Below, one piece after another: positions 3,081 to 60,523 of a DNA stretch of 64,000 bases. The first letter of the stretch is position 1. Each line of letters starts with the position of its first letter. The stretch is taken from positions 67,759-131,758 of the IMG/VR virus record IMGVR_UViG_3300018481_000018; one strand, written 5' to 3'. Position numbers and translations under genes: made by a program. The notes beneath the pieces were generated by a model. The model did no database searches and was not told the DNA's origin. It was given only the letters and a program-made list of their open reading frames with translations. This DNA is from a virus (lineage: Duplodnaviria; Heunggongvirae; Uroviricota; Caudoviricetes).

Positions 3081-3182
3081 TCAGACCTCGAATCCGATGG
3101 CTCGCAGTACCTCAGGGAAAGCGGAGTCGAGCCTGTTCTCCTTGGGCTGCACGAGCCCGATCAGCAGCAGGTCTGCGCCCAT
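3081..3182 (-). CDS. small ORF (33 aa), translationally coupled
   Basis: ATG 3182..3180 overlaps stop of upstream gene (ATGA); MGADLLLIGLVQPKENRLDSAFPEVLRAIGFEV. Confidence 0.3.
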   Translation of the reverse strand: MGADLLLIGLVQPKENRLDSAFPEVLRAIGFEV

Positions 3183-3946
3183 CAGCTGTTCTCCTTCTCC
3201 CAGAAGTTCTCTGCGTCTTCCGTCGTGGTGATGGCTGCCTTGATGTCGTCAGGCACCTCGAGGCTCTCGTCGCGGATCACCTCGTAGCCGTTCTCGACAC
3301 CGCGCTCGGTCTCGATGCGCTTGCGGAAGGCGGCACTGCGGGCGCTCTCGATGTTGTCGGCGTCCCATTCGGCCTTGACCTCGGCGTACGGCCTGCCGTA
3401 CAGCACCTCGGCCGCGAGCTCGTAGGGGTCATGGGCGACCTGGAAGTACTCGCCGTCCTCGATCCGGTAGTGGTCGAGGTTGGAGCCGAAGTCCTCGTCG
3501 GCGTACTTCACCTCGAACTCCTCGTCGGGGAACTTGGCGGAGAGTGCCTCAATGATCGGAATGGGGTGAGACCAGGCGGTCTGGAACGTCAGCCGGCACA
3601 GGTCGCCGGGCAGCGGCTCGATCTCGGTCGAGTAGGCGTTCCACTTGGTGCCCCAGTGCCCGATGTTCCAGGAGTACCAGCACACGACACCCGGCTCGTG
3701 CTGACTGTTGCAGCCGCCCTCCTCCTTGTTGGGCGGGCTCGGGACGATCAGCTCGAAGTCCACGAACCGCTTGGGCAGTTCCTCCTGGGGGTAGGGCCAC
3801 TCGTTGCCGGTGCGCTCCTTGTAGCGGACCTTGGTCTCGGCGTGCTGCTGGTCGTGCGCAGCGATCTCTGCGGCGGTGTGCTCGCGAGTAATCGCGTGGA
3901 TCACCTTCGGGTTCGCGATGATGATGTTGCTGACGTGATTCGGCAT
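3182..3946 (-). CDS. hypothetical protein, possibly DUF1281/Api92-like ferredoxin-fold family (254 aa)
   Basis: N-terminal MPNxxSN motif; strong SD CCAAGGAGGAA before ATG 3946. Confidence 0.6.
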   Translation of the reverse strand: MPNHVSNIIIANPKVIHAITREHTAAEIAAHDQQHAETKVRYKERTGNEWPYPQEELPKRFVDFELIVPSPPNKEEGGCNSQHEPGVVCWYSWNIGHWGTKWNAYSTEIEPLPGDLCRLTFQTAWSHPIPIIEALSAKFPDEEFEVKYADEDFGSNLDHYRIEDGEYFQVAHDPYELAAEVLYGRPYAEVKAEWDADNIESARSAAFRKRIETERGVENGYEVIRDESLEVPDDIKAAITTTEDAENFWEKENS

Positions 3947-3964
3947 GGTTCCTCCTTGGGAATC

Positions 3965-4050
3965 AGGTTTTGAACGTTCGTCGAAACTCCGAATCGACGG
4001 GACGATGGCACTGTCACGCTATGCGTAGGGAACGCCTCATGCGTGACGTG
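3965..4050 (-). repeat. intergenic repeat element A: GAAACTCCGAATCGACGGGACGATGG core plus TCATGCG/TGACGTG heptad-like tail
   Basis: 26-nt core nearly identical to 22511-22537; tail overlaps stop of gene 4037..4327. Confidence 0.65.
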
Positions 4051-4327
4051 CGCGAGCGGCCGCGATGTCTTCGTCCATGCCGGGCCAGTACCCGCGCACG
4101 ATCTCAGTCGGAGCGTGCCCCTCGCCGCCACCAACGCAGTTGCCTCGATGGCGACGCGGAAGGGAGCAGTCGTCCAGATGTAGGCCGTACTGCTCATTCT
4201 CGGGGCGCAGGGCCCCGGCGGGCATCAGGCAGCGCACGCACTGCGTCGTGTCTTCGTTGGGCCCCGCAGGGGGCTTGTGTGGCCCGTCGGGGCACTTGCT
4301 TGGGTCCTGGTAGTAGTCGCCGATCAT
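4037..4327 (-). CDS. hypothetical Cys-rich protein (96 aa)
   Basis: ORF track; 3' end (..ARARHA*) runs into the TCACGCG-type repeat element. Confidence 0.55.
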   Translation of the reverse strand: MIGDYYQDPSKCPDGPHKPPAGPNEDTTQCVRCLMPAGALRPENEQYGLHLDDCSLPRRHRGNCVGGGEGHAPTEIVRGYWPGMDEDIAAARARHA

Positions 4328-10691: not shown

Positions 10692-10733
10692 AAAATCGGG
10701 TGGTGGGTGGTCGGTGACCAATGTTCGGATTGG
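10692..10733 (-). promoter_or_regulatory. conserved promoter-like motif (CAATCCGAACATT core plus CACCCACCACCC tract)
   Basis: Near-identical 40-mers at 17770, 24368, 28300; lies 5-45 nt upstream of gene start 10686. Confidence 0.55.
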
Positions 10734-15982: not shown

Positions 15983-17743
15983 CTAGACCTTCTCGAAGAT
16001 CCGCTTGACCGATTCGGGCTTCAGGTCAGAGACGGGGATCACCACGTCGCTGATCTTGTTAAGCAGGCCCACCGGTCCGGTCTGGTAGGTCATGTCGTGA
16101 GCGCCTCCGATGTAGACCGAGTAGACCCGTACGCCGACGCGGTTGCGCTCGGCGTTGAACCTCTCGATCCACGTCTCGTCGAGGTGGGACTGGCCGTCGG
16201 TGATGAAGATGATGTCGGCCTTATCCTTCCCCGACTTGTCGAAGTCCTTGGTCGCCTTCTCCAGCGCCTCGGTGAGCACGCCGTCGAACTGCGTGCCCCC
16301 GTTGGCCTGAGTCCCGAGGAACGACATGACCTTCTCGAACGGCCCCTTGCCCTCGGGGAAGTCGAACCGCTCGCGGTCGTTGTTGTTGCCGAAGAACATC
16401 GCGTAGTAGTCACGATCCTCGTCGGCAGCGAACCGTTGCAGCGCCTCGGCCACGCCCATCGCCCACATGAAGGGCGAGCCCCCCATGGAGCCGGACTTGT
16501 CGATGGCGATCACGATGGGGCCCTTGCCGACCTCTTCGGTGCCGCGCATCTTGTAGACGAGCAGCTCCTTTTCCAGGTATCGGCGGTAGAACTCGTACGT
16601 CGTGTCCTTGTGCCCCAGGAGGGCGAACTGCGCCCGGAGCGTGCGACGAAGGTCGTCACCCGTCTCCACGTCGTACGCCTCGTGTGGCACGTCGTTGACC
16701 CTGGTGGCCTTGACGCCCAGTGCGAACCGCTTCATCTGTCCGATCACCTCGGACAGCGCCTTCATCTCCGGCGTGCGGAGTCGCTCGGCGAATGCCAGTC
16801 GTTCCTCGGGGTTCATGCTGTGCCACTCGCCGTCCTCCAGGCCGATGCCCTTGCGGAGGTTGTCGAGCTCGGATGCTTCGCGCTCGGCGGCGTCCAGCAT
16901 CTTGTTGGCCATGCGGTCGAGGTCGAGGTCGTCCAGCATGGCGTCGAACTCGGCCTCCCACTCCGCCTCGGCCTGGTTCATGGCGTCCTCGGAGTCGGGG
17001 TCGAACTCGTCGTCGCCCTCGCCAGTCAGATCCTCCTCAACCTCGGACCCATCGCCCTCGCCGGGGTCGAAGTCGTCGCCGGGAGATGCGCCGCCGGCAC
17101 CTTGGCTCCCACCCTCGCCCTGGCCTTCACCTGGGCTCGGCTGGCCCTCACCCTGGCCTTCACCGCCCTCGCCTTCGCCTTCACCTTGGCCTTCGCCTTG
17201 GCCCTTTCCGCCACCCTTCTTCTTCTTGCCGCCCGGCTGGGGCGGCGGGGGCGGCGGCGGGATGCGGCCGATGATCTCCCGGAGCGGCTCCGCCATGGCG
17301 TCGAGCGCCACGGTCGCCATCACCGGGTCGTTGACGGTGAACTCCTGGAGCTCCTTGAGCTTGGGGTTGTCCGCCACCTCCTCCAGGATCTTGCGCACCG
17401 GGTAGAGCTCGCGCTCGAGGTTGCGCTTGGCCTCCAGGCGAGGGTTCGCCTTGTAGAAGGACTGGAACAGACCCTCGACCAACTCCGGCGCGGGCTCGAA
17501 GCCTTCGCGGTGCCCGTTCTCACGGTGAGTGTCGCCGATCACCAGGTCTTCCACCAGGTCGTCAACGCTCTCGGTCTTGCGCGCCTCCTTCCACACTCGG
17601 TCGTCCCAGCGGTTGGTCTTGATGACCTTCCGGGACTTCTCCTTGGGCTGGGGCGGCGGGGTGAGGCCAGGACCCAGGAAGCCCTGGTTGCTGGCCATGC
17701 GGGACTTGAGCCTGTCGATGAAACTCACGGGCTGTGTGGTCAT
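15983..17743 (-). CDS. von Willebrand factor type A (vWA) domain protein with Gly/Glu low-complexity linker
   Basis: C-terminal IVIAIDKSGSM..GGTQF..IIFITDGQS: DxSxS metal-ion-dependent adhesion site plus conserved T/D; SD CAAGGAGGGGGA. Confidence 0.8.
   Translation of the reverse strand: MTTQPVSFIDRLKSRMASNQGFLGPGLTPPPQPKEKSRKVIKTNRWDDRVWKEARKTESVDDLVEDLVIGDTHRENGHREGFEPAPELVEGLFQSFYKANPRLEAKRNLERELYPVRKILEEVADNPKLKELQEFTVNDPVMATVALDAMAEPLREIIGRIPPPPPPPQPGGKKKKGGGKGQGEGQGEGEGEGGEGQGEGQPSPGEGQGEGGSQGAGGASPGDDFDPGEGDGSEVEEDLTGEGDDEFDPDSEDAMNQAEAEWEAEFDAMLDDLDLDRMANKMLDAAEREASELDNLRKGIGLEDGEWHSMNPEERLAFAERLRTPEMKALSEVIGQMKRFALGVKATRVNDVPHEAYDVETGDDLRRTLRAQFALLGHKDTTYEFYRRYLEKELLVYKMRGTEEVGKGPIVIAIDKSGSMGGSPFMWAMGVAEALQRFAADEDRDYYAMFFGNNNDRERFDFPEGKGPFEKVMSFLGTQANGGTQFDGVLTEALEKATKDFDKSGKDKADIIFITDGQSHLDETWIERFNAERNRVGVRVYSVYIGGAHDMTYQTGPVGLLNKISDVVIPVSDLKPESVKRIFEKV
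17100..17260 (-). repeat. GC-rich short tandem repeats encoding (GEGQ)n/Gly-Lys low-complexity tract inside the vWA gene
   Basis: ggccttcgccttcaccttggccttcgcc.. periodicity visible in sequence. Confidence 0.6.
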
Positions 17744-17769
17744 TCCCCCTCCTTGGGGTGGGTGTGAAG

Positions 17770-17810
17770 ATTTCGCGTGGGTGGTGCTGGGACTGAATGT
17801 TCGGATTGAG
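17770..17810 (-). promoter_or_regulatory. conserved promoter-like 40-mer (..CAATCCGAACATTCAGTCCCAGCACCACCCACGCGAAATC.. on - strand)
   Basis: Same element as 10692, 24368, 28300; immediately upstream of vWA gene start 17743. Confidence 0.55.
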
Positions 17811-18322: not shown

Positions 18323-19141
18323 TCAGGCCATCACGTGCTCGCCCTGGGTGGCAGGGCAGACCGCGTTCTCGGTCGAATCGTCGAGCACGACCCGGCCGTC
18401 GGCCAGTTGCTTGACGACCGAGACGCACGTGCTGCACATGCCGCGCTTGACCGGCGCGTTGCCAGCTTCGCGCTGGGCGTTGACGGCCTCATCCACGATC
18501 CGATCGCCCTGGGTGGCTCCGGGCTTGTAGCCCGCCTTGGTGGCCCCCTTGGGCTCCTGGTACATGAACAGGTAGCCGCCGCCGTTGTCCAGGACTCCGA
18601 CCCGACCGAGTCGCCCGGTCTTGAGCAGGAAGTCCAGCATGGCCAAGGCGGCCACGCTGTCGGCAGGGTCGACTTCGGCCAGCGCGTCCTCGAACGTTGC
18701 CGGTCCCGTGTTCATCAGTCCACCCAGCGCGCTGTTCACGGCGTTCTGGACGAGCGTCGAAATGTCGGGCTGCGGAGCGGCCGCCGCCGGCTGGGTGGTG
18801 AAGGCGGAGCCCGGAAGGGGCGCGATCCCCAGGTCGGAGCAGAGCCGCTCGTAGATGTCCGGCTTCTCGCCGATGTACTCGTTCAGGTACTCCTCGACCG
18901 TGCGGTCGGGGCCGACGTGCTGCTGGAACAGGTCGTAGTGCTCCGTGATGTGGTCGATCTGGGCGGCGGTGATGATTGCGCCCGGTCGCACGATGTCTTT
19001 CGTCATGGATTCCTCCTGGTGGTGTTCATGGCAAGTGGCGTACGGCCCGTATGGCCCCTGCGAGACGTGCGCGGCGGGGCGGGGAGGTTCGATCCCGTCC
19101 TCGATGCACCGCTCGCAGAGACCATCCAGGTATCCGTCCAT
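18323..19141 (-). CDS. hypothetical protein (272 aa; alt start 19006 with CCAGGAGGAA SD)
   Basis: ORF track; ATG 19141 shares a base with MoxR stop (TGATG). Confidence 0.6.
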   Translation of the reverse strand: MDGYLDGLCERCIEDGIEPPRPAAHVSQGPYGPYATCHEHHQEESMTKDIVRPGAIITAAQIDHITEHYDLFQQHVGPDRTVEEYLNEYIGEKPDIYERLCSDLGIAPLPGSAFTTQPAAAAPQPDISTLVQNAVNSALGGLMNTGPATFEDALAEVDPADSVAALAMLDFLLKTGRLGRVGVLDNGGGYLFMYQEPKGATKAGYKPGATQGDRIVDEAVNAQREAGNAPVKRGMCSTCVSVVKQLADGRVVLDDSTENAVCPATQGEHVMA

Positions 19142-20400
19142 CAGGCCGGCGAGTTGACGGCTGCGGCGTTGGCCAGGTTCTGCTGGGCCGTGGCGTCGAT
19201 GCCGAAGATGTCCTTGCCGATCTGGAGCTTGAACGAGTTCGCCTTGCCGATCACCTCGACCAGCCGAGTGGTCGCCGCACCAGCGGCCTGGGCCTTGGTG
19301 AGGTGCTCGTTGGCCTCAGCGAGCAGGCGGTCGATGTTCTTGACCTGCTCCACGCCGATCCGCTTCTTGCGGCTGTCGTCGACGTCGGGCTTGGACGCGG
19401 CGTTGATCTCGTCACGCACCTTGTCCAGGTCCTCGAGCAGGTCCAGTGCAGCCTTCTCGCCGGGGTTGGTGGCGGCCAGGATGACCGACCGGGCCTCGGG
19501 ACGCTGCTCCTGCACGGTCCACCACATGTTGGCGAGGACGTCCAGGTCGGCGACCTTCACCTCGTTGTGACCCCGGACCCAGGCGTTGGCCATGACGGCG
19601 GCCATGCCTTCGACCGAACGGCGGTCGCTGATGTTGATCTGGGCCTTGCCCTGGCGCAGCTCGTCGCGAATGTCGAAGAACATCGCCACCACCGGGTCGG
19701 ACACCGGCAGGGCCAGCGCCTCCTTGTGGGCCTGGTCGAGCTCGTCGAGCGTGACGATCGTCTTGCTCTGGCCGGGCACCATGGTGCTCACGCCGCGACC
19801 CACCAGGGCCATGCGAGCGATCGCGTCGCCCACCAGGTCGATCTGGTTCTGGCGGTCGGCCACGTAGTCGACGATGTGCCGGATGTGGATTCGGTCCCAC
19901 AGCGCGGCCTGGTCGGCATCGGCGTTCAGCTTGTTGGTGCCGGCGAACATCGAGCGCAGCTCGATCTCGTGCGGGATGCCGTTGTTGTGGAACACCCGCT
20001 CGTTCAGGATCGGCTGCATCGAGTGGAGCAGCGGACCGTTGGCGTTGAAGAACTCGTCGCAGAAGGCGTGAGTCGCCTCCGGCAGCATGCCGGTGGTGAC
20101 GCGGCGGGTCTTGCCGTCCTCGACCATGGCCTTGATGTCAGGCGGGCCGAAGACCTGCGAGGGGTCCGTGGTCTCGTCGAACGCGGACTCGAAGTACACC
20201 GAGCCCTCGATGTGGCTGCACATCCGACGGACGGCGTAGGACTTGCCGGTACCTGCCGGGCCGAGCATGAGCAGGTGCTCCTGAGCGACGGCGGCGACCC
20301 ACATGTCGTGGATCAGGGCCTCGCGCTCCTTGATGTCCTGGCTCATCTCGGCCACGATGTTGAGCACGCGGTCCTGAACGCTCGTGGTAGTGGTGGTCAT
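19141..20400 (-). CDS. MoxR-like AAA+ ATPase (AAA_5 type)
   Basis: Walker A LGPAGTGKS; MoxR-like spacing of later motifs; ATG 20400 preceded by GAGGAGGAGAC; ORF-track N-terminal Arg-rich 145 aa rejected. Confidence 0.8.
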   Translation of the reverse strand: MTTTTTSVQDRVLNIVAEMSQDIKEREALIHDMWVAAVAQEHLLMLGPAGTGKSYAVRRMCSHIEGSVYFESAFDETTDPSQVFGPPDIKAMVEDGKTRRVTTGMLPEATHAFCDEFFNANGPLLHSMQPILNERVFHNNGIPHEIELRSMFAGTNKLNADADQAALWDRIHIRHIVDYVADRQNQIDLVGDAIARMALVGRGVSTMVPGQSKTIVTLDELDQAHKEALALPVSDPVVAMFFDIRDELRQGKAQINISDRRSVEGMAAVMANAWVRGHNEVKVADLDVLANMWWTVQEQRPEARSVILAATNPGEKAALDLLEDLDKVRDEINAASKPDVDDSRKKRIGVEQVKNIDRLLAEANEHLTKAQAAGAATTRLVEVIGKANSFKLQIGKDIFGIDATAQQNLANAAAVNSPA

Positions 20401-20425
20401 GCGAGTCTCCTCCTCGGAGATTGGG

Positions 20426-20446
20426 TTCTGGACGTTCGTCTGAACT
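20426..20446. promoter_or_regulatory. imperfect palindrome GTTCTGGACG-TT-CGTCTGAAC (operator-like family member)
   Basis: ~26 nt upstream of MoxR start; related to sites at 35145, 44976, 46649, 47119. Confidence 0.4.
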
Positions 20447-20465
20447 GGCAGTTCGTTGGTAGCGG

Positions 20466-21701
20466 TCACTCTTGCCGCATGTGCTTGCGCTCGCGGATCG
20501 TTGCCCGAGCCCGTTTCTGCTGGCTTCGCTGTGCAGCCTCTCGGGCGTAGGCGATGAGGGTATCTTCCTCGCCGGTCAGGGACGCAACGGTTCGCGCCTC
20601 GTCCCACTTCTCGGCGATCTCGCCGTGATTCACCTGGGCGTGACAGTTGACCACGAACGTGCCGGTGGGTAGGTGCATGGTCAGGCTGTGCTGGTAGTCG
20701 AACCCGCTTTGAGTTTCGCCGTCGTGGACACTCTCGATGCTGACGGTGACCCCAGAGGCGTCGCCGCTGAGCAGCGCCTTCTGGAAGTCGTTCTCGGTCT
20801 TGTCGTCGATCACCATGCCGATGCCTCGCAGGCATGTTTGGAGCTCCCTGTAGAGGCGAAGGGCCTCGGTCAGGGTGGGCGTGCCGTCGAGGTAGTCGGT
20901 GAGGTCGGTGGTGAAGCCGCTGTGCATGTTCGTCTCGTACAGCTCCAGGTCCATCCAGGTCGGGTTCTCCGGGTCGCGGAGGTCGGGCACTTGAATGGTC
21001 TCGAAGTCGTCGATGTTGCGCACCTGGTTCAGTAGTCCTTCGACCAGCGCTCGCTCGGAGGTGTACTGGTTACGACCCAGCCAAGCAGCCCAGGTTGCCG
21101 GGTCGTCCCGGACGAACTCGCGTGCCGTGGCTGCCGCCTGGGTGTTCGGTGATACCGAGTTGATCAAGGTGTCGAAGGTGTGGTTCTGCACCCTGTAGGC
21201 AGCTGGGTGCAGCGCCTCCCACGCCCTGATCCCCACCGGCGCGGTGCGAGGAAGCATGACTGCGGTCTCGATCTTGTGCGCGCTGGATCCATTGGGATGG
21301 ACCCGGCCAGCGCTGACTACGACCAGCGCTTCGATCGGCAGCGTGGGATGTTTGAAGCGCCACCACACATTCGTCTTCGTGTGGAAGTTTTGGTCGAGGA
21401 CGTACAGCTCGGCGCGCGTCTCGGCCGGCTTGAAGCCCGCCTCGTCCTCGACCCTCTCCTCGTAGTCGTGCAGGGGCATCCAGATCGACGCCGCGTTCTT
21501 CTCGGCGTATGCCTGGACGGTGCGCATCACGAGTTCGTCCATGTCCTTGGTGAACGCGCTCAGGTCGGTGCCCGCGACGCGAACCTTCCGACCCGAGCCG
21601 GACTGCTCGAGCGCGGGTTCGGCCACGATCGTTCCGTCGGTGAGCAGCCACTGGCGCGACTGCTCAAAGTTGGTTCGTGGGTGCCAGGCTGTCTGCCCCA
21701 T
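20466..21701 (-). CDS. hypothetical protein (411 aa)
   Basis: ORF track; SD CGAGGAGGCTCAGC before ATG 21701. Confidence 0.6.
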   Translation of the reverse strand: MGQTAWHPRTNFEQSRQWLLTDGTIVAEPALEQSGSGRKVRVAGTDLSAFTKDMDELVMRTVQAYAEKNAASIWMPLHDYEERVEDEAGFKPAETRAELYVLDQNFHTKTNVWWRFKHPTLPIEALVVVSAGRVHPNGSSAHKIETAVMLPRTAPVGIRAWEALHPAAYRVQNHTFDTLINSVSPNTQAAATAREFVRDDPATWAAWLGRNQYTSERALVEGLLNQVRNIDDFETIQVPDLRDPENPTWMDLELYETNMHSGFTTDLTDYLDGTPTLTEALRLYRELQTCLRGIGMVIDDKTENDFQKALLSGDASGVTVSIESVHDGETQSGFDYQHSLTMHLPTGTFVVNCHAQVNHGEIAEKWDEARTVASLTGEEDTLIAYAREAAQRSQQKRARATIRERKHMRQE

Positions 21702-22491
21702 GCTGAGCCTCCTCGGGCCTCTTGAGTCGGGTGGTCTTGGCGGGTTGTTCGGCTTGGATCAGTGCGAGCAGGCGGTCGATCGCCTGAGTGGTACCCAGAG
21801 GCTTACTGCCTGCCTTCACGATAGGGATGCGTTCTGACATCCCCCACGGCTCGGCGGAGCCGGCAGTGCGGGCCTGGTTCTCGTACCTCAAGTAGCGTCG
21901 TTCGATCAGTTTCTCGTAGCGCACCCAGTCCTCCAGGATCGTCTCATCGACCACGCGTTCGGAGCGACCGGGCCAGCCCTGGTCGAGGGCGGGCTGGATG
22001 GTCCAGCTGCCGGCGCGCGCCTTGAGTTCGACCCAGCGGTTGGTCTGGGAGTAGGTGCGGCACCCGAGCAGGTCCTCGCTGACGTAGTGGCGGCGATCGT
22101 TCCAGTCCTGCAATCCCCGGTAGCCGATGTACTCCATCGGCTTGTCGGCTATGAGCCACTGGTAGCGGCCGTGCAGGTGGCTCCACTGAAGGAAGGGCAC
22201 GTACTCGGTGATCCTGCTGCGGCGGGTGTAGCCCCACATGGTGTTGAACATGAAGCGCCCGCCCCGAGTCAAGGTGAAGTGGGTACTGAGCCCTCGGTCC
22301 CCCCACTGTTGACCAAGGCCGATGCAGTCATCCGGTGAAGGCGAGGAGTCCTGGTGCTGCCACTCCACGCCCCAGGCGAAGCGCCCGAAGGCGCAGACCT
22401 CGTTGCCCCAGGCATTCAGGACGGCTTCCCACTGGCGGAACAGGGCGATTGCTGGTTGCGCGTCGGGTTGCTCGAACAGAGCATCGTTCAT
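21664..22491 (-). CDS. hypothetical protein (275 aa)
   Basis: ORF track; SD GAAGGAGAAACC before ATG 22491; first gene downstream of repeat element B. Confidence 0.6.
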   Translation of the reverse strand: MNDALFEQPDAQPAIALFRQWEAVLNAWGNEVCAFGRFAWGVEWQHQDSSPSPDDCIGLGQQWGDRGLSTHFTLTRGGRFMFNTMWGYTRRSRITEYVPFLQWSHLHGRYQWLIADKPMEYIGYRGLQDWNDRRHYVSEDLLGCRTYSQTNRWVELKARAGSWTIQPALDQGWPGRSERVVDETILEDWVRYEKLIERRYLRYENQARTAGSAEPWGMSERIPIVKAGSKPLGTTQAIDRLLALIQAEQPAKTTRLKRPEEAQHGADSLAPTNQL

Positions 22492-22504
22492 GGTTTCTCC
22501 TTCG

Positions 22505-22600
22505 ATCCATGGAAACTCCGAATCGACGGGACGATGGAGTTGTCACGCCACGCGAATACCGCCTCACGCATCACGCGTCACGCGGCGTGTGTGCGCCTGG
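22505..22600 (-). repeat. intergenic repeat element B: GGAAACTCCGAATCGACGGGACGATGG core plus 3 tandem TCACGCR heptads
   Basis: Homologous copies at 3965-4050 and 37185-37275; heptads overlap stop codon of gene 22571..22921. Confidence 0.7.
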
Positions 22601-22921
22601 CTTCCACGATGGGTGATAGCCGTTGCGGGCCACGTTGGCGGCCGCGCTCAGGCCCTCCTTGATGCCGGTGAGGATGTTGTGGCTGGCCTGGCTCACGCCT
22701 TCTGGGTCGTAGTCGTTCCATCCTCGGCCCTGGTCGTCGCGCTCGCCCTCGATGTCCTTGGCGATCTGCTCGCGTTGCCTGGCGAGCATGTCCTCGGCGA
22801 ATGCGAGCAGGTCCAGTTCAGCCTCCAGTCCTTCAGTGTCGGCGTAGCGGGTCGCGTCCAGGGTCTTGGCGACTCTCGCCATCACCCAGGGGTCCTTGTG
22901 CAAGTCGCTCGTCATCCCCAC
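22571..22921 (-). CDS. hypothetical protein (116 aa) ending ..TPRDA*
   Basis: ORF track; last codons encoded by the heptad repeat. Confidence 0.5.
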   Translation of the reverse strand: MGMTSDLHKDPWVMARVAKTLDATRYADTEGLEAELDLLAFAEDMLARQREQIAKDIEGERDDQGRGWNDYDPEGVSQASHNILTGIKEGLSAAANVARNGYHPSWKPGAHTPRDA

Positions 22922-24354: not shown

Positions 24355-24367
24355 GAGGCTCCTCAGG

Positions 24368-24408
24368 ATTTCGCGTGGGTGGTGTTGAGGTCCAATGTTC
24401 GGATTGAG
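24368..24408 (-). promoter_or_regulatory. conserved promoter-like 40-mer (CAATCCGAACATTGGACCTCAACACCACCCACGCGAAATC on - strand)
   Basis: Third copy of the long motif; 14 nt upstream of ATG 24354. Confidence 0.55.
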
Positions 24409-25771: not shown

Positions 25772-26098
25772 TTACACCTCGTTGAGGATGTCGATGCGGG
25801 GGAGGTCGCACTCCTCCGCGAACTCGTCGAGGACCTCGGTGAGCGTCATGTTGTGCTGGCTTGGCAGCGTGAGGATGTGGTCGATGTTGTTCTGAACGTG
25901 CGTCCGAACCTCCTGGAGGAACTGCTCCATCCTGAACTTCTTGAGGTAGCCGGCGTCGGCCGGCAAGGTCGTCACTTCGTCGATCACCAGGTCGTCCGGC
26001 GTCTCGGTGATGTGAACCTGGAACATGACGCCCTCGAACGCACGTTCCTCACTCGTGGCGACATAGCCGTCGACTTGCAGTACATGCTTGGTGTTCAC
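25772..26098 (-). CDS. hypothetical protein (108 aa), coupled to ligase gene
   Basis: GTG 26098..26096 overlaps ligase stop (GTGA), preceded by GGAGG; ORF-track start 26149 would overlap ligase by 55 nt. Confidence 0.5.
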   Translation of the reverse strand: MNTKHVLQVDGYVATSEERAFEGVMFQVHITETPDDLVIDEVTTLPADAGYLKKFRMEQFLQEVRTHVQNNIDHILTLPSQHNMTLTEVLDEFAEECDLPRIDILNEV

Positions 26099-26904
26099 AG
26101 CGCCTCCAGGACCTTCTTGTTCACGTGCCGGAGTTGGCCGGTGGTGCATTCGTGCATCGCCTTGTCGTCCCGCTTGCGCAGGATGGTGGGCTGGTAGAGC
26201 CGCCCGCCGGCACCGGTGTAGAGGTAACGCACCTCGAGCACGTCACCCATGGCGATAGTCCCGCCCTTCTCCTTGCCAATCAGACTGGCGCGGCCCACTG
26301 AGACCACATCCCCGTCCTCGACCAGCCCCAGGTCCACGGAGTCCTTGCCGTCGGTTCGGACGCCCGTCACGATGCAGTCGGCGGTCGAGACGAACTTGAG
26401 CTTGAGCCACTCCTCGGTGCGGCCACCGGATCTGTAGGGCGAGTTCGCCTTCTTGAGCATGAGTCCCTCGAAGCCATCTTGCAGAGCGCGGCTGGCGAGT
26501 TTGATCTTCTCGTCGAGCGTCTTCGCCTGAGGTACCAACTTGAAGTCGTTGGGCACCGAGCCCAGGAAGGTCTCCAAGCCTGCGCGCCGCTGGAAGAGCG
26601 GCTTGTCGGCCCACAGCAGTGTGGGCGTCAGGGGCATGTCGAACACCCAGAAGACGTCTCCCACGAGCTCGCCGTCCAGCGCCCACTCCCCTGCCGGGAA
26701 GCGGAAGTCGATCACGCTGCGCGGCAACTTCTTGGAGTAGATCGAGCCGTTGCGGGTGATGGCGTTGCCGGGCATGTCCATGCCGGGCGACATCAGCAGG
26801 ATGCGGTTGCCGTCCAACTTCTGCTCCATGACCCAGGAGTCGTCCTTGATGAATGCTTCGAGCGAGGTCACCTCGGCCGACTTGGCCAGTTGGGGGTACA
26901 ACAT
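26095..26904 (-). CDS. ATP-dependent DNA ligase (minimal, ~269 aa)
   Basis: Adenylation motif I EQKLDGNR; further nucleotidyltransferase motifs (FDxP, EGLMLK, KLK); ATG 26904..26902 overlaps upstream stop; ORF-track N-terminal 118 aa extension is junk. Confidence 0.8.
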   Translation of the reverse strand: MLYPQLAKSAEVTSLEAFIKDDSWVMEQKLDGNRILLMSPGMDMPGNAITRNGSIYSKKLPRSVIDFRFPAGEWALDGELVGDVFWVFDMPLTPTLLWADKPLFQRRAGLETFLGSVPNDFKLVPQAKTLDEKIKLASRALQDGFEGLMLKKANSPYRSGGRTEEWLKLKFVSTADCIVTGVRTDGKDSVDLGLVEDGDVVSVGRASLIGKEKGGTIAMGDVLEVRYLYTGAGGRLYQPTILRKRDDKAMHECTTGQLRHVNKKVLEAL

Positions 26905-27122
26905 CACTTCACCTCCAAGGTGATGATCGGGTCGAACTCGAAGAATCCGACGATGAGGCCGAATCCGTAGATGAGGAAGAAGAAGACGGCCACCGTGAAC
27001 ACGCCAGCGAACAACGCAGGCAGCCAGCCGGGGCCGATCTCGCCCATCCCTGTCACCAGGACCATCCACCAACAGCCAGCTGCGATGAACGGGGCCAGGA
27101 TGAACAGCAGCGACAGCATCAC
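26904..27122 (-). CDS. small integral membrane protein (72 aa, 2-3 TM)
   Basis: ORF track; highly hydrophobic; ATGA overlaps both sides. Confidence 0.5.
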   Translation of the reverse strand: MMLSLLFILAPFIAAGCWWMVLVTGMGEIGPGWLPALFAGVFTVAVFFFLIYGFGLIVGFFEFDPIITLEVK

Positions 27123-27355
27123 TTGCTCCTGACGGGAAACTTCTCGATGTGCCAGAAGTCGCTGTAGTCACTCCGCTGGAGGTTCGCGCTCGCCCAGGAG
27201 GAGCCATCCTCCTGGAGGTACCAGCGCTTGACTTCTGGGCGTGACGCTTTGGCGACATCCGCGTCGACGAATACCTGCTCCACCTCGCTCCCCTCGTAGG
27301 GGAAGACGTGGGTGAGGACGAACACCTCCTCGACGGCTAGCTTCGGCCTAGGCAT
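27119..27355 (-). CDS. hypothetical protein (78 aa)
   Basis: ORF track; coupled between Ku and membrane protein. Confidence 0.5.
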   Translation of the reverse strand: MPRPKLAVEEVFVLTHVFPYEGSEVEQVFVDADVAKASRPEVKRWYLQEDGSSWASANLQRSDYSDFWHIEKFPVRSK

Positions 27356-28203
27356 CAGACGGCCTCACGCTCCGCCTTGGCGGCCTCCACGGACGCCGAG
27401 AGCATGGCCAGGAGGTCCGGTGCGGCAGCGGGGGCCGCAGCGACCACGCGCTCGCCCTCGGCGGGCTTGCCGAAGTCGCCGGCACTGGCCTTCTCGTCGG
27501 CGAACGTCTGGATCAGGGCGGTTCGCTCGTCGGTGAAGTCCAGTGGCTGGTCCTCCCACACGGTCTTGATGAGCGTGCCCATCATGGCGACCTCGGCGTC
27601 GACGACCTCGGTCTCCGGGAACTCGCGCTGCTCACGAACAGCGTCGGTGTGGTGCACGAGCCACAGTCGCCCGTCGGGCATCAGGACGCAGGGCTTCGGC
27701 TTGCCTCGCGTGGTGAGCTCGCAGACCGCCATCGCGTTCTGCTCGCGCATCGCCTTGAACAGCGTCGCCATGAGCTTGGTTGCCACCGGGTCCGGCTTGC
27801 CCTTGGCCTTGCCTGAGTCGCCCTTGCGCGGCTCGGTGTAGAGCAGGCCGGAGGGGACGAAGTGACCCTGGTGGAAGTTGTGCTGCGGCTCGAACTCCCG
27901 GACGACCAGGGTGTCGGGCTGGAGCGTGAACAGTTGCTCGATCTCGTGGTCCTCCACGTAGACCGGGCCGTACTCGGTGTCGATCTTCTTGATGACCTCT
28001 GCGCCGGGTTCGAGCAGCTCGCCCGTTTCCTTGTTGGTCAGGCCGCGACCCACGGGAGCCTCGCCGTCGTCGGTGACGACGAACTGCTTGCGCGTGATGC
28101 CGTGGTCGGACACGGTGCCGGTGTAGAGGGTGATCGGGATGTTGACGAGGTTGAACGAGAGGTTGACCTTGTTCAGCGAGCGACCGCTGGGCTGTGCCTT
28201 CAT
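27355..28203 (-). CDS. ku: Ku-like DNA end-binding protein (non-homologous end-joining)
   Basis: N-terminus LSFNLVNIPITLYTGT matches bacterial Ku core (cf. ISFGLVNIPVKLY); 282 aa; C-terminal Ala/Lys tail. Confidence 0.8.
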   Translation of the reverse strand: MKAQPSGRSLNKVNLSFNLVNIPITLYTGTVSDHGITRKQFVVTDDGEAPVGRGLTNKETGELLEPGAEVIKKIDTEYGPVYVEDHEIEQLFTLQPDTLVVREFEPQHNFHQGHFVPSGLLYTEPRKGDSGKAKGKPDPVATKLMATLFKAMREQNAMAVCELTTRGKPKPCVLMPDGRLWLVHHTDAVREQREFPETEVVDAEVAMMGTLIKTVWEDQPLDFTDERTALIQTFADEKASAGDFGKPAEGERVVAAAPAAAPDLLAMLSASVEAAKAEREAV

Positions 28204-28236: not shown

Positions 28237-28635
28237 TCAGTTTCTGCTGGCGAACCAGTTGTCGACACGCGCCGCAAGAGCGTATCGCGCATCGTCGAGC
28301 CGTTGGAGCAGATTTCGTCGTGGGCGTTCCGGGACTGAACGTTCGGAATGCTCCAGAGCGCAGAGCGCCGGGTAGAGGTCGGGCATGTCTCGCACGCACG
28401 TCAGGACCTCGATCACGAGGTCTCGGTCATGCGGGATCTTGTCGTCGTCCGTCGCGCCCGCTCCGACGCTTCGACCGTGGAAGAAGCCCCGGACGTAGCC
28501 CATGACGGCCGCATCCTTGACGAGCTGTTGCTCGTGCTCGGTCATGGCCTCCCACATCTTGCCGGCGGCGGTCAGGCGTTCGTTGTCGCGGGCTGCGAGG
28601 TACGCCTCGAAGCCCTCAGGCAGGCTGGTGGTCAT
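28237..28635 (-). CDS. hypothetical protein (132 aa); 3' end contains promoter-like 40-mer
   Basis: ATG 28635 overlaps upstream stop; C-terminal codons coincide with motif copy at 28300-28341. Confidence 0.5.
   Translation of the reverse strand: MTTSLPEGFEAYLAARDNERLTAAGKMWEAMTEHEQQLVKDAAVMGYVRGFFHGRSVGAGATDDDKIPHDRDLVIEVLTCVRDMPDLYPALCALEHSERSVPERPRRNLLQRLDDARYALAARVDNWFASRN
28300..28341 (-). promoter_or_regulatory. promoter-like 40-mer embedded in coding 3' end, 95-135 nt upstream of Ku start
   Basis: CATTCCGAACGTTCAGTCCCGGAACGCCCACGACGAAATC (- strand) matches 30/40 positions of the 17770 copy. Confidence 0.5.
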
Positions 28636-36680: not shown

Positions 36681-37109
36681 TCACGCCTCCTTGGTGAGGT
36701 TCTGCTGGGCGACGTCACCGCTCTCGGTCTTGAACACGACGACGGCGGCGACCCGGCCCTTGCCCGAGCTGGCCACGATCTCGGGCTTGCCGGTCTTGTG
36801 GACCCGGACGATGGCCTCGGCAAGTGCGGGCCCACCGTAGACGCGGCCCTTGGTGTGCTTGTAGCCCTGCTTCTCGACCAGCGCGTCGGCGGGGTTCTTG
36901 GCCTCGACAGCCTCGGCAGCGAGCGCCTCGGCAGCCTCCTCCTCAGAGAAGCCGGCGGCGAGCAGCGTGGCGGTGGCGTCGAGCTCGGGTTCGGGCTGCG
37001 TGTTCTTGCGGATGCGGTCGAAGGCGACCTTGGCCTTGGCCTGGGTACCCAGAACGGCGACGAGCGCCTGGAACTGCGGGTCGTTCTTGGTGGCGGCGTT
37101 GATGCCCAT
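36681..37109 (-). CDS. hypothetical protein (142 aa)
   Basis: ATG 37109 (MGINAATKNDPQF..) preceded by CACAGGAGGCCACC. Confidence 0.55.
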   Translation of the reverse strand: MGINAATKNDPQFQALVAVLGTQAKAKVAFDRIRKNTQPEPELDATATLLAAGFSEEEAAEALAAEAVEAKNPADALVEKQGYKHTKGRVYGGPALAEAIVRVHKTGKPEIVASSGKGRVAAVVVFKTESGDVAQQNLTKEA

Positions 37110-37184
37110 GATGGTGGCCTCCTGTGGCCTCGTGTGGACACGCTGCACGGGATCGTGCGGCGTGGGGGATTCTTCTTCGGTTCC

Positions 37185-37275
37185 TCGGACTACTCCGAAA
37201 TGTTGGGACGAAAGAGTTGTCACGCTACGTGTAGAACGCCTCACGCGTCACGCATCATGCGTCACGCGGTGTGCG
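37185..37275 (-). repeat. intergenic repeat element C: CTCCGAAATGTTGGGACGAAAGAGTTGTCACGC core plus 4 tandem TCACGCG/TCATGCG heptads
   Basis: Homologous to 3965-4050 and 22505-22600; heptads overlap stop of gene 37255..37623. Confidence 0.7.
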
Positions 37276-37623
37276 ACCCAGGATCGAGGCGATGGCTTCC
37301 TGCTCGGCCGCCTCAGCCTTGAGCAACTGGGCAGCGGCCAGTTTGTCGTGGTGAGCCATGACGTACTCGACCGCATCCTTGGCCTCCTTCAGTCCGATGC
37401 CGGCTCGCTGACGCACCTCCTTGATGGCGTTGATCTTCTTCTCGGGGATGTAGACGAGGATGTCCTCCTCGCCCATGATCCATTCGGCCACACCCACCAC
37501 ATCGACACCCTCCAGGGCGATGGCGAGCGTGCGTCCGCCGATGTCGATCATCTCGATGGCGGCGGCGATCGCCATGGAGGGTTGACGCTTGGACAGCGCC
37601 CTGATCCTCTCCTCGAAGTTCAC
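37255..37623 (-). CDS. ribosomal protein L7/L12 (bL12) C-terminal-domain-like protein
   Basis: KINAIKEVRQRAGIGLKEAKDAVE closely parallels bL12 CTD [24 protein letters not shown]; ends ..TPRDA* inside heptad repeat. Confidence 0.6.
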   Translation of the reverse strand: MNFEERIRALSKRQPSMAIAAAIEMIDIGGRTLAIALEGVDVVGVAEWIMGEEDILVYIPEKKINAIKEVRQRAGIGLKEAKDAVEYVMAHHDKLAAAQLLKAEAAEQEAIASILGRTPRDA

Positions 37624-40770: not shown

Positions 40771-40986
40771 TCAGCGCCGGTCGTCCTGAGTAGGAGCCAG
40801 TCGGTCGGTCTCGTCGTGAATGACGACACCTGGGGTCTCGCGGAGCGCGTCGCCGTGCTCCTTGGCGTGGTGGGCGCAGAACCGAAGTTCTCCACCCGTG
40901 GGCAAGGTGGCGAGCAGGTACGCCTGCGCTCCACAGCGGTCACAGCGGTCGATGGCGGTCAGGGACTGTGCGGCCTGGACGGTCAT
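40771..40986 (-). CDS. hypothetical protein with CDRCG..C..HH (71 aa)
   Basis: ATG 40986 preceded by AGAGGAGGAGTC. Confidence 0.5.
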   Translation of the reverse strand: MTVQAAQSLTAIDRCDRCGAQAYLLATLPTGGELRFCAHHAKEHGDALRETPGVVIHDETDRLAPTQDDRR

Positions 40987-51868: not shown

Positions 51869-51962
51869 ATCGTGTACCCTCGCCGCATGAGATTCGGAAG
51901 GCACTGGCGCAACTCCGCCTGATCGTCGGCTACGTGCGGCCGGCGATCAGCCATGGCCCGTA

Positions 51963-52034
51963 GCTCAGCGGAAAGAGCACCCGCCTCCTAAGCGGTTGGC
52001 GCAGGTTCGAGTCCTGCCGGGCCAGCACGAGTGG
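51963..52034 (+). tRNA. tRNA-Arg (anticodon CCT)
   Basis: Manual cloverleaf: acceptor TGGCCCG/CGGGCCA, D-stem GCTC/GAGC, anticodon loop CTCCTAA, T-arm GCAGG-TTCGAGT-CCTGC. Confidence 0.75.
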
Positions 52035-52039
52035 GCATA

Positions 52040-52113
52040 GCTCAAGTTGGCAGAGCATCGGTCTCCAAAACCGAAGGTTGCAGGTTCGAGCCCTGCTGCC
52101 CATGCGATCCGGA
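52040..52113 (+). tRNA. tRNA-Trp (anticodon CCA)
   Basis: Manual cloverleaf: anticodon stem TCGGT/ACCGA perfect, loop CTCCAAA, T-arm GCAGG-TTCGAGC-CCTGC. Confidence 0.75.
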
Positions 52114-52168
52114 CTACGACCTCGGCCGAGATGAGGCACGAGCATCAATGATCCGGACTGGTCCCGTA

Positions 52169-52241
52169 GCTCAAGTGGCAGAGCGCCCGGCCCGAAGCTG
52201 GGAGGCTGGAGGTTCGAGTCCTCCCGGGAACGCAGGATGGG
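52169..52241 (+). tRNA. tRNA, isotype uncertain (anticodon loop CCCGAAG reads CGA with C33; short variable arm)
   Basis: Acceptor GGTCCCG/CGGGAAC (one G.A mismatch), D-arm GCTC-AAGTGGCA-GAGC, T-arm GGAGG-TTCGAGT-CCTCC. Confidence 0.55.
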
Positions 52242-53214: not shown

Positions 53215-53264
53215 GACACTCCTTCGTGACATGCGTCCGGGGGAGACGCTTCCGAGTCCGAACT

Positions 53265-53293
53265 GAATGTTCGGATTCCCAATGTTCGGTTAC
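53265..53293 (-). promoter_or_regulatory. two tandem promoter-like motif copies (GAATGTTCGGATTCCCAATGTTCGGTTAC)
   Basis: Seen in sequence; 50-80 nt upstream of - strand gene start 53214. Confidence 0.5.
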
Positions 53294-53439
53294 AGCAGCG
53301 CAAAGGTCAATGCTCGTCGTGTACCTTCTGTGGCGGTCGGGCCTCGCGTCCCTCCGATGGGAGGGGAAGTGACCTCACTGGATCGAGAGCCGGTGAGCGA
53401 TCGGGGAAGAGCGCGGGGCCTGACCGTTTGTCTCGGCGC

Positions 53440-59048: not shown

Positions 59049-59471
59049 ATGTCTGTCCGCGCGAAGTTCTTTGTTACCAGGCTGGTGAACCCCGAGGGTG
59101 CCACGGCCGCCGAAGTCGGTCTGACGCCCGTGTGTCGGGGTGTCGAGAACGCCCTGTGGTCTCAGGCCACTCCGTCCGGCTCGATCACGATGCATGTCAA
59201 GAACAACCCGGCCTTCGAGCAGTTCGAGCAAGGTGCCGAGTACGAGGTGACCTTCCGCAAGGTTGAGAAGCCCATGCCTGGTGACGGTCACCAGGTCAAG
59301 CCGGTCACCAACATGCACGGGTGGGACGTGTGCGAGATCTGTGGTGCTCACCTCGGTGCCAGTCACGCGCTGGTCGAGAGGGAGACCTGGCGAGCGGGGT
59401 ACGGCCCCGACAGTGAGGCGTACAAGAAGGCCCTGGTCATGCACGAGGAGACGTACGCCAAGGCTGAGTGA
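59049..59471 (+). CDS. hypothetical protein (140 aa)
   Basis: ORF track; SD CCAGGAGGTTGCGATC. Confidence 0.6.
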   Translation: MSVRAKFFVTRLVNPEGATAAEVGLTPVCRGVENALWSQATPSGSITMHVKNNPAFEQFEQGAEYEVTFRKVEKPMPGDGHQVKPVTNMHGWDVCEICGAHLGASHALVERETWRAGYGPDSEAYKKALVMHEETYAKAE

Positions 59472-59692
59472 GGTGTGGGGCCGGGCCCGGCTATCGCACT
59501 ACCCGCAAGCGGGCGGCTGTGCGCCGGTTCGCTCGAGGAAGAGTCCCGGCCCCCTTAACACCAGACACCTGTTGCTGGAAGGCACCAGTCGTGAAGAATC
59601 AGCACGCGCCGATCTTCACTTGTGTCCCCCGACGGTTGTCGGGTTGCGCCACAGGCTACTACGACACGACGGAGAATGAGGGTTTCAGACGC

Positions 59693-60523
59693 ATGTCTGG
59701 AATCTTGTGGCACCATTCCTTCATGGAGCAAGTGAAGCTCGAGCCTGAAGTGCTCGACAACGCGTGGGCCGACTACAAGCTCAAGGGCGATCTCTCAGCT
59801 CGCAACGACCTTGCTCTCCACTACGTATCGCTGGTACGCGTGGTCGCGTTCAAGATCGCTGCGCAGCTGCCGAAGATGGTCGACCGCGAGGACCTGATGT
59901 CGTACGGGCTCTTCGGGCTCCTCGACGCGATCGAGAAGTATGACTTCGACAAGCAGGTGAAGTTCGAGACCTACGCGGTCACCAGGATCCGAGGAAGCAT
60001 CTTCGACGAGATCCGGGGCCTGGACTGGGTGCCCCGAACCGTCAGGGCCAAGGCCAGGGACATCGAGCGAGCGGAAACCGAGCTTCATGCCAAGCTCGGC
60101 CGGCCGGCAGCGGATGCGGAGGTGGCGGCGCACCTGGGCGTGACGCTGATCGACCTCTGGCAGACCCAAGCCCTGGCAGATAACGGCGTCGTCAACAGCT
60201 ACTACGACGACATCGGGGAGGGTGGAGCCGATGGCAAGACGGTGAGCGAGCGGTTCGCCTACACGAAGGCGGCCTACGATCCGACAGCCAATCCCGAGGA
60301 TCTCTACGCATCGCAGGAGGTTTGCGAGCTCTTGGCCGAAGCGGTCGACATGCTCCCTCAGCGATCAAAGACCATCCTCGTCCTCTACTACCTCTACGAG
60401 ATGACCCTGGCCGAGATCGGCGACATCCTCGGGGTCACGGAAAGCCGCGTGTGTCAGCTACAGAGCAAGCTCCTTCAGACACTTCACGTGTCCCTCGCGG
60501 AGGGACTCGTGGCGGCAGCTTGA
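59693..60523 (+). CDS. sigma-70 family RNA polymerase sigma factor (FliA/WhiG-like)
   Basis: Region 2 YGLFGLLDAIEKYD..FETYAVTRIRGSIFDEIR; region 4 HTH LTLAEIGDILGVTESRVCQLQSKLL; ATG 59693 after GGAGAATGAGGG; ORF-track upstream 75 aa rejected. Confidence 0.75.
   Translation: MSGILWHHSFMEQVKLEPEVLDNAWADYKLKGDLSARNDLALHYVSLVRVVAFKIAAQLPKMVDREDLMSYGLFGLLDAIEKYDFDKQVKFETYAVTRIRGSIFDEIRGLDWVPRTVRAKARDIERAETELHAKLGRPAADAEVAAHLGVTLIDLWQTQALADNGVVNSYYDDIGEGGADGKTVSERFAYTKAAYDPTANPEDLYASQEVCELLAEAVDMLPQRSKTILVLYYLYEMTLAEIGDILGVTESRVCQLQSKLLQTLHVSLAEGLVAAA

Follow-up and report, generated by a model that had tools for sequence, protein, structure and literature searches.

Mycobacteriophages of cluster A carry stoperators and those of cluster K start-associated sequences, in both cases single sites of 13 bp that recur tens of times, and Bacillus phage SPO1 encodes a sigma factor, gp28, that has its own promoter class. 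Contiguous 7-bp repeats are found on pSM19035, a Streptococcus pyogenes plasmid with six heptad sites: its omega protein, a ribbon-helix-helix ParB, recognises promoter-overlapping runs of 7-10 contiguous WATCACW heptads, which may be direct or inverted, and at least four contiguous heptads are needed to activate the plasmid's ParA (PMC9499535). Promoters of the FliA/WhiG class combine a -35 TAAA, 15 nt and a -10 GCCGATAA (PMC8325347). Here we describe an element that joins a bipartite core to contiguous 7-bp repeats, found in a window of 64 kb (the whole stretch of DNA that was analysed, 64,000 nucleotides) that is part of a 144,413-bp metagenomic contig. The element is genuine, conserved and non-coding, most likely serves gene control in a new family of large phage-like replicons, and is of a known type, promoter plus operator.

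Three copies of a composite intergenic element

The window has a G+C content of 62-69% and, from 1 to ~50 kb, consists mostly of small, tightly packed minus-strand genes. Megablast of window segments found no near relatives among deposited phages and plasmids, and tblastn of the MoxR, VWA and sigma proteins gave distant phage matches only. The 140 window ORFs match 48 PHROG families and have few Pfam matches (including Ku, ATP-dependent ligase, MoxR, VWA, SPFH, dual-specificity phosphatase, WGR, HNH and DUF1281_C); no structural genes were seen in the window. Two distant relatives are IMG/VR viral contigs (147.7 and 66.9 kb); other relatives lie on 134-147 kb contigs, one of them deposited as a Nonomuraea MAG contig and one carrying a phage integrase. 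Given this context, the replicon is taken here to be a large phage-like element whose host is probably an actinobacterium.

Profile search of the window with filters off (model R1, built from 15 sites) finds three copies of the element only, A, B and C, at 48-60 bits, the next match scoring 9 bits. A repeat search of the window recovered the same three as one repeat family, in agreement with the places given in an earlier note on this DNA. All three are on the gene (minus) strand, with a stop codon on the upstream side and a ribosome-binding site (RBS) and start codon on the downstream side, in intergenic regions that contrast with the tight gene packing in the rest of the genome (Table 1). 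Read along the gene strand, each copy passes from the end of the upstream ORF through GCGTGAN heptads and a gap ending in CGCGTR (14 nt in B and C, 16 nt in A) to the box GCGTGACA; then come 6 nt, TCGTCCC, 5-6 nt and TTCGGAGT, followed by 20-82 nt of leader, GGAGG and the start. The core can be written as CGCGTR-GCGTGACA, N22, GAGT. Its box, which had been spotted as GTCACGC on the opposite strand, is exact in all three copies, as is the longer pattern GCGTGACA-N6-TCGTCCC. Copies A and B have an exact 26-mer in common, GAAACTCCGAATCGACGGGACGATGG; the string originally written for this 26-nt core has 27 letters, the first G of which is absent from A. That chance would hardly produce such identity is borne out by a 25-mer of the A/B core, which has two matches in the window and none in 100 shuffles. 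The core ends 36 nt (A), 20 nt (B) and 82 nt (C) before the start of the next gene, which corrects a first estimate of ~40-90 nt.

Table 1. Window coordinates of the element copies, their flanking genes and other features discussed
Feature	Position	Strand	Description
Copy A, profile match	3981-4038	minus	48.3 bits, E 5e-14
Copy A, box GCGTGACA	4012-4019	minus	exact pattern match
Copy A, TCGTCCC	3999-4005	minus	exact pattern match
Copy A, TTCGGAGT	3986-3993	minus	exact pattern match
Copy A, heptads			one inverted GTCACGC and, adjoining, one direct GCATGAG; no tandem array
Copy B, region	22509-22583	minus
Copy B, profile match	22509-22569	minus	59.9 bits
Copy B, box GCGTGACA	22541-22548	minus
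Copy B, TCGTCCC	22528-22534	minus
Copy B, TTCGGAGT	22515-22522	minus
Copy B, heptads	22563-22583	minus	GCGTGAC GCGTGAT GCGTGAG; 3 contiguous; TRF period 7
Copy C, region	37188-37267	minus
Copy C, profile match	37188-37246	minus	56.8 bits
Copy C, box	37218-37225	minus
Copy C, TCGTCCC	37205-37211	minus
Copy C, TTCGGAGT	37192-37199	minus
Copy C, heptads	37240-37267	minus	GCGTGAC GCATGAT GCGTGAC GCGTGAG; 4 contiguous; TRF period 7
Upstream ORF of A	4037-4327	minus	96 aa, ..ARHA*; TGA 4037-4039 inside GCATGAG
Upstream ORF of B	22571-22921	minus	116 aa, ..TPRDA*; TGA 22571-22573
Upstream ORF of C	37255-37623	minus	122 aa, ..TPRDA*; TGA 37255-37257; L7/L12 C-terminal-like domain
First gene after A	3182-3946	minus	254 aa, DUF1281_C / Api92-like; RBS AAGGAGG 3951-3957
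First gene after B	21664-22491	minus	275 aa, no known family
First gene after C	36681-37109	minus	142 aa, conserved; 82-nt leader; AGGAGG 37118-37123
Leader hairpin of C	37145-37158	minus	GCACG-ATCC-CGTGC
VWA-domain protein	15983-17743	minus	in the block headed by copy B
MoxR-type AAA+ ATPase	19141-20835	minus	in the block headed by copy B
ATP-dependent DNA ligase	26095-27258	minus	close to Ku; end-joining pair
Ku-like protein	27355-28203	minus	close to ligase; end-joining pair
DUF7455 protein	~40792-40980	minus	small; CxxC...CxHH zinc-ribbon-like motif
tRNA cluster	51954-52233	plus	Arg-CCT, Trp-CCA, Ser-CGA
FliA/WhiG-family sigma factor	59468-60523	plus	351 aa; Pfam sigma-70 regions 2, 3 and 4
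Second upstream repeat	17769-17810, 24367-24408, 28311-28352	minus
Second upstream repeat, further occurrences	near 10700-10730 and 53260-53300

The gene after copy B is the first of a block that continues into the genes for the MoxR ATPase and the VWA protein; the phage homologs nearest to these two come from Bacillus phage 0305phi8-36 and a Moorella phage. After copy C, the downstream gene is the 142-aa frame and not a longer overlapping ORF. Its product is kept in at least 31 metagenomic relatives, with an invariant C-terminal domain (KGRVYGGP..AEAIVRVHKTGKPEIV.SSG.GR....V....SGDV..QNL), and has no Pfam or PHROG match; its AlphaFold2 model (pLDDT 82) found no match with E<0.08 in a PDB fold search. 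The leader of this gene, 83-181 nt long across the window (37110-37190) and loci L071-L083, L066 and L006, contains in most relatives, 25-45 nt ahead of the start, a putative hairpin built on GCAC-loop-GTGC, and GGAGG often sits in the loop of a GGCC...GGCC stem.

Several further features of the genome were observed alongside. A second upstream repeat, (A)ATCCGAACATT, ~15 nt, CCCACGCGAAATC, precedes the RBS and start of other minus-strand genes, those for VWA and Ku among them, by 10-110 nt; at 53274 its first box falls within the palindrome TCCGAAC-N5-GTTCGGA. The repeat probably represents a further class of promoter or operator in this genome. Ku/ligase end-joining pairs are known in a few mycobacteriophages, and here both genes are also present in four relatives (L006, L074, L085 and L086). 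The DUF7455 gene is kept in all relatives (L071, at 385-621, L073, L074 and L075), where it precedes the C-type element by a few genes, and the small L7/L12 C-terminal-like protein directly upstream of C is conserved in L071.

Conservation among metagenomic relatives

Relatives of the element were reached via its flanking proteins. The exact core pattern has 0 matches in viral, genome and metagenome collections; neither the protein downstream of B alone nor an alignment of the 142-aa family gave related loci in viral contigs, and the family alignment gave eight loci in JGI metagenomes. The earlier note had named absence from related genomes among the things that together would speak against the element; instead, at least 16 distinct relatives from metagenomes, with 28-77% protein identity, show the same layout at orthologous places, and several of them sit on contigs of 134-148 kb. 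Two are B-type: L001 (64% protein identity) has an identical 21-nt triple heptad and a core that differs at five positions, and in L003 (28%) the heptads are arranged as inverted repeats. The C-type, upstream of the 142-aa gene, comprises 13 loci with 36-77% identity where measured (L071/L072, L073, L074, L075, L076, L077, L079/L080, L081-L083, L066 and L006). In the A-type loci L084 and L086, which carry orthologs of the gene after copy A, the core is kept with just 1-2 heptads, as in A itself; in L085 there is no intergenic gap at the A-type gene, and a diverged copy follows a member of the same upstream gene family. Sites outside the training set were scored by the profile at 41 bits (L079), 34.5 (L083), 20.7 (L003) and 17.3 (L085).

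The intergenic sequence is about as well kept as the coding sequence that flanks it, with 77.5% identity against 74-87% between B and L001 and 85.5% against 83% between C and L071. An alignment of 16 sites gives the consensus gcGTsAc GcGTatt nCGCGTr / GCGTGAcA / a.tCcaTCGTCaC.g.tTTtcG / GAGTa, with box variants GCGTGACA, GCGTGAGA and GCGTGAAA. Box and GAGT are separated by 22 nt in 16 of these 16 sites; in three further sites the distance deviates, by -2 nt in two and by +1 nt in one. The element therein consists of two conserved blocks at a fixed N22, with a spacer whose sequence differs between clades. Leader length varies among relatives and in some exceeds that of the window copies, which is how a 5' UTR behind a promoter would behave.

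These data bear on the proposal, also made in the earlier note, that the element is a small mobile one (MITE-like or cassette-like) that inserts at gene ends and supplies stops in three frames. The A and B cores are 26/26 identical, whereas B differs from its L001 ortholog at five core positions; moreover, the otherwise unrelated genes upstream of B and C share an element-encoded TPRDA*, and three heptads close all frames. Against this, the copies keep orthologous positions even where protein identity drops to 28-36%, they have a fixed orientation and a fixed distance to the downstream start, and no terminal inverted repeats of at least 10 nt are present. Profile scans of the window and related loci found no copy inside a gene or in reversed orientation, and there are only 1-3 copies per 20-64 kb. 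The closeness of A and B could equally result from gene conversion or from co-evolution with a trans factor common to both. We therefore consider mobility highly unlikely and set this proposal aside.

Heptads, stop codons and known signal classes

B and C are the sole clusters of at least three GCRTGA in the 64-kb window, so that a description of every tail as three or four tandem heptads is right for B (three) and C (four) and wrong for A, which has one direct and one inverted unit only. The box has the form of a heptad too, and exactly 14 nt into the spacer comes a second such unit, nCGTCAC, which is heptad-like. Across the window copies and relatives, 32 of 55 upstream heptad-like matches are in phase 0 with the box, against ~8 expected. 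Heptad count had been singled out as something that might differ among relatives, and it does, ranging from ~0 to 10 (up to about ten in-phase units in L074). Orientation varies too: heptads are inverted in A, L003, L006 and L082 and direct in B, C, L001 and L071. Motif and phase are thus kept while number and orientation vary, with no kept RNA fold, a pattern expected of DNA sites for a cooperatively binding protein. To judge from the sequence, the earlier suggestion of 'iterons or tandem transcription-factor sites' is therefore borne out as to kind, with protein binding putative. Because copy A and its orthologs have no tandem array, the heptads are, if these copies are functional, not needed for the core.

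Scanning IMG/VR for tandem GCGTGAN arrays gave 67 loci, among which only L006 and L066 are true relatives, and a control scan with the permuted heptad GGCTGAN gave at least 120. We accordingly dropped the notion of a GCGTGAN system widespread across viruses. Heptad arrays of arbitrary sequence are common in viral contigs, and for this reason tandem heptads alone are weak evidence. Arrays in such contigs (IMG/VR loci L004-L070 and L087-L166) are often followed by an inverted array. A literature search for the heptad string found no paper.

Heptad arrays could also be centromere-like (parS) or replication-iteron sites of a plasmid-like prophage that double as operators. In favour of this, promoter-like regions are overlapped by several dispersed arrays, each with 3-4 or more contiguous 7-bp repeats, and pSM19035 offers a precedent in its six omega-bound sites that double as operators (PMC9499535). 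However, Pfam searches of the window and ~160 kb of related loci found no ParA, ParB, ribbon-helix-helix or Rep family, and the phage integrase in one relative points to integration rather than plasmid maintenance. The sites are dispersed, show no inflection of cumulative GC skew and have no Rep family nearby, and copy A and its orthologs lack arrays altogether. Replication or partition sites are, on this evidence, an unlikely reading of the arrays.

The earlier note had placed the upstream stop codons inside the heptads, with tails ARHA*, TPRDA* and TPRDA*, and its coordinates and tails are correct for all three copies; in B, heptads 1-2 encode the last four codons and the TGA. A script found that at 15 of 19 related sites the upstream ORF ends 8-50 nt before the box, and that the last sense codon is GCG or GCA in all 15 such ORFs. 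This follows automatically, because each heptad reads GCG/TGA and three heptads close all three frames: an ORF that enters the array ends within three heptads. The ..RDA* tail is likewise inevitable in any ORF that has passed one heptad and entered the next, and we rejected its constancy as a meaningful signal. The upstream ORFs of B and C are unrelated except for the tail TPRDA, and among relatives the upstream gene changes while the array stays. Stop-codon overlap is an incidental by-product that needs no special explanation.

It had also been proposed that the overlap serves termination-reinitiation coupling between the flanking genes, and a stop does lie inside the repeat in 3/3 copies and at those 15/19 related sites. 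But 79-145 nt separate stop and start in the window, and up to ~200 nt in relatives, every start is served by a strong GGAGG site of its own, and the GCG or GCA before the stop comes simply from the reading of the heptad, the repeat remaining where the upstream gene differs. Coupling can hardly be credited, and this part of the earlier note finds no support.

Since the site lies at a gene end, the element might act as RNA, either as a terminator or attenuator of the upstream gene or as a processing or stability site, and copy A, L003 and L006 can form strong inverted-heptad hairpins. Only inverted-heptad arrangements fold well (L003, z = -3.0), though; direct heptads give no hairpin. No conserved fold was found, the z values of the window copies (-0.5 to -1.3; -0.3 to -1.3 with L001 included) being not significant, and the pairing register of the core differs between B and its ortholog L001; what is kept is sequence, not structure. 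On the gene strand at B and C, the two copies scanned, there is no intrinsic terminator (GC-rich hairpin and T-run). At the gathering threshold the element has no Rfam match, and the window gives three tRNAs only. An action at the RNA level thus appears improbable.

Nor does the core fit the consensus of a housekeeping promoter. A search for sigma-70 sites (TTGACA, 16-18 nt, TATAAT; at least 9/12 matches, with A2 and T6 of the -10) gave 0 sites in 22400-22700 and 37050-37350; the GTGACA in the box matches 5/6 of a sigma-70 -35, with no TAnnnT at 16-18 nt. No copy matches the FliA/WhiG consensus TAAA-N15-GCCGATAA within three mismatches. The best -10-like 8-mer, GTCGATTC, has three mismatches to that consensus and is in the wrong register, and the likeness is limited to several relatives, in which a CCGAT-like motif follows the box at a distance of 11 nt.

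A proposed control region and its comparison with known systems

The window encodes a sigma factor of its own, which scores 217 bits against TIGR02479 FliA_WhiG (cut-off 189.6); the model that it fits best, WhiG, gives 256 bits, which falls short of the equivalog cut-off. Its gene belongs to a small plus-strand cluster that diverges from the main minus-strand block. Searches for a regulator of the heptads were negative: no ribbon-helix-helix or other DNA-binding family was found among the 140 window ORFs (Pfam E<=1e-3; 64 of 144 kb), and no DNA-binding Pfam family among ten small neighbouring ORFs at E<=0.5.

We favour, with moderate confidence, the reading that each copy is a transcriptional control region for a block of genes in a large phage-like element, with a promoter-like core and an in-phase heptad operator array. 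The downstream part of ~35 nt would form the bipartite core, CGCGTR-GCGTGA(C/G)A, 22 nt with TCGTCAC or TCGTCCC, and GAGT. Transcription would start just after it, giving a leader of ~20-80 nt with the GGAGG site. Because the housekeeping sigma-70 consensus is not fitted, the core is most likely read by a specialised form of RNA polymerase, for which the FliA/WhiG-family sigma factor would be the obvious candidate; we infer this pairing as a guess, the canonical consensus being unmatched in the core. The GCGTGAN heptads are most likely the sites of a cooperative regulator that coats the promoter as an array, as omega does, and that could either repress or activate. Copy A, almost devoid of heptads, would then be the least regulated copy. 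The control region abuts the upstream gene, so that stops arise as a by-product of TGA-bearing heptads.

A fuller version of this scheme is possible but doubtful in its entirety. It holds that a phage-like family of ~135-148 kb, probably actinobacterial, has private promoters for a few key gene blocks, served by its own FliA/WhiG-type sigma factor, and that a GC-rich omega-like heptad array extends through the -35 box into the spacer, with heptad number setting regulatory strength block by block. If the control-region reading is true, the element marks the starts of the main transcription units in an otherwise uncharacterised family of large phage-like replicons, and profile R1 is a ready search model for such control points in metagenomes. 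It would also provide a second, GC-rich case of regulation by protein arrays on 7-bp repeats, for which the only well-studied example is a Firmicute plasmid.

Among phage systems, stoperators and start-associated sequences resemble the element in being short intergenic motifs that recur in one genome in fixed orientation to genes and are shared within a lineage. The element differs from both in being a composite of ~60-90 bp (array plus bipartite core), in its ~3 copies per 64 kb and in its 7-bp periodicity. With SPO1 gp28 and the FliA/WhiG systems it has in common a sigma factor of the genome's own together with a few near-identical, non-housekeeping bipartite boxes, although these boxes do not match TAAA-N15-GCCGATAA.

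The omega system offers the closest parallel for the heptads. The consensus here is GC-rich, GCGTGA(C/T/G) rather than WATCACW, with only the GTGA/TCAC core in common; window sites have 0-4 good repeats and not 7-10; and the replicon is phage-like, with a host that is probably an actinobacterium and no omega- or ParA-like gene in the 64 kb. Yet two or more contiguous 7-bp repeats, as in omega sites, are present at B (three) and C (four), A having one plus one, and the omega unit read on its other strand, WGTGATW, shares the GTGA core with the unit here, CGTGAYG. Both systems contain contiguous non-palindromic 7-bp repeats, direct or inverted, in several arrays per replicon that overlap promoters or promoter-like regions. 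We accordingly regard the heptads as analogous to the omega system, a likeness of arrangement that carries no claim to membership.
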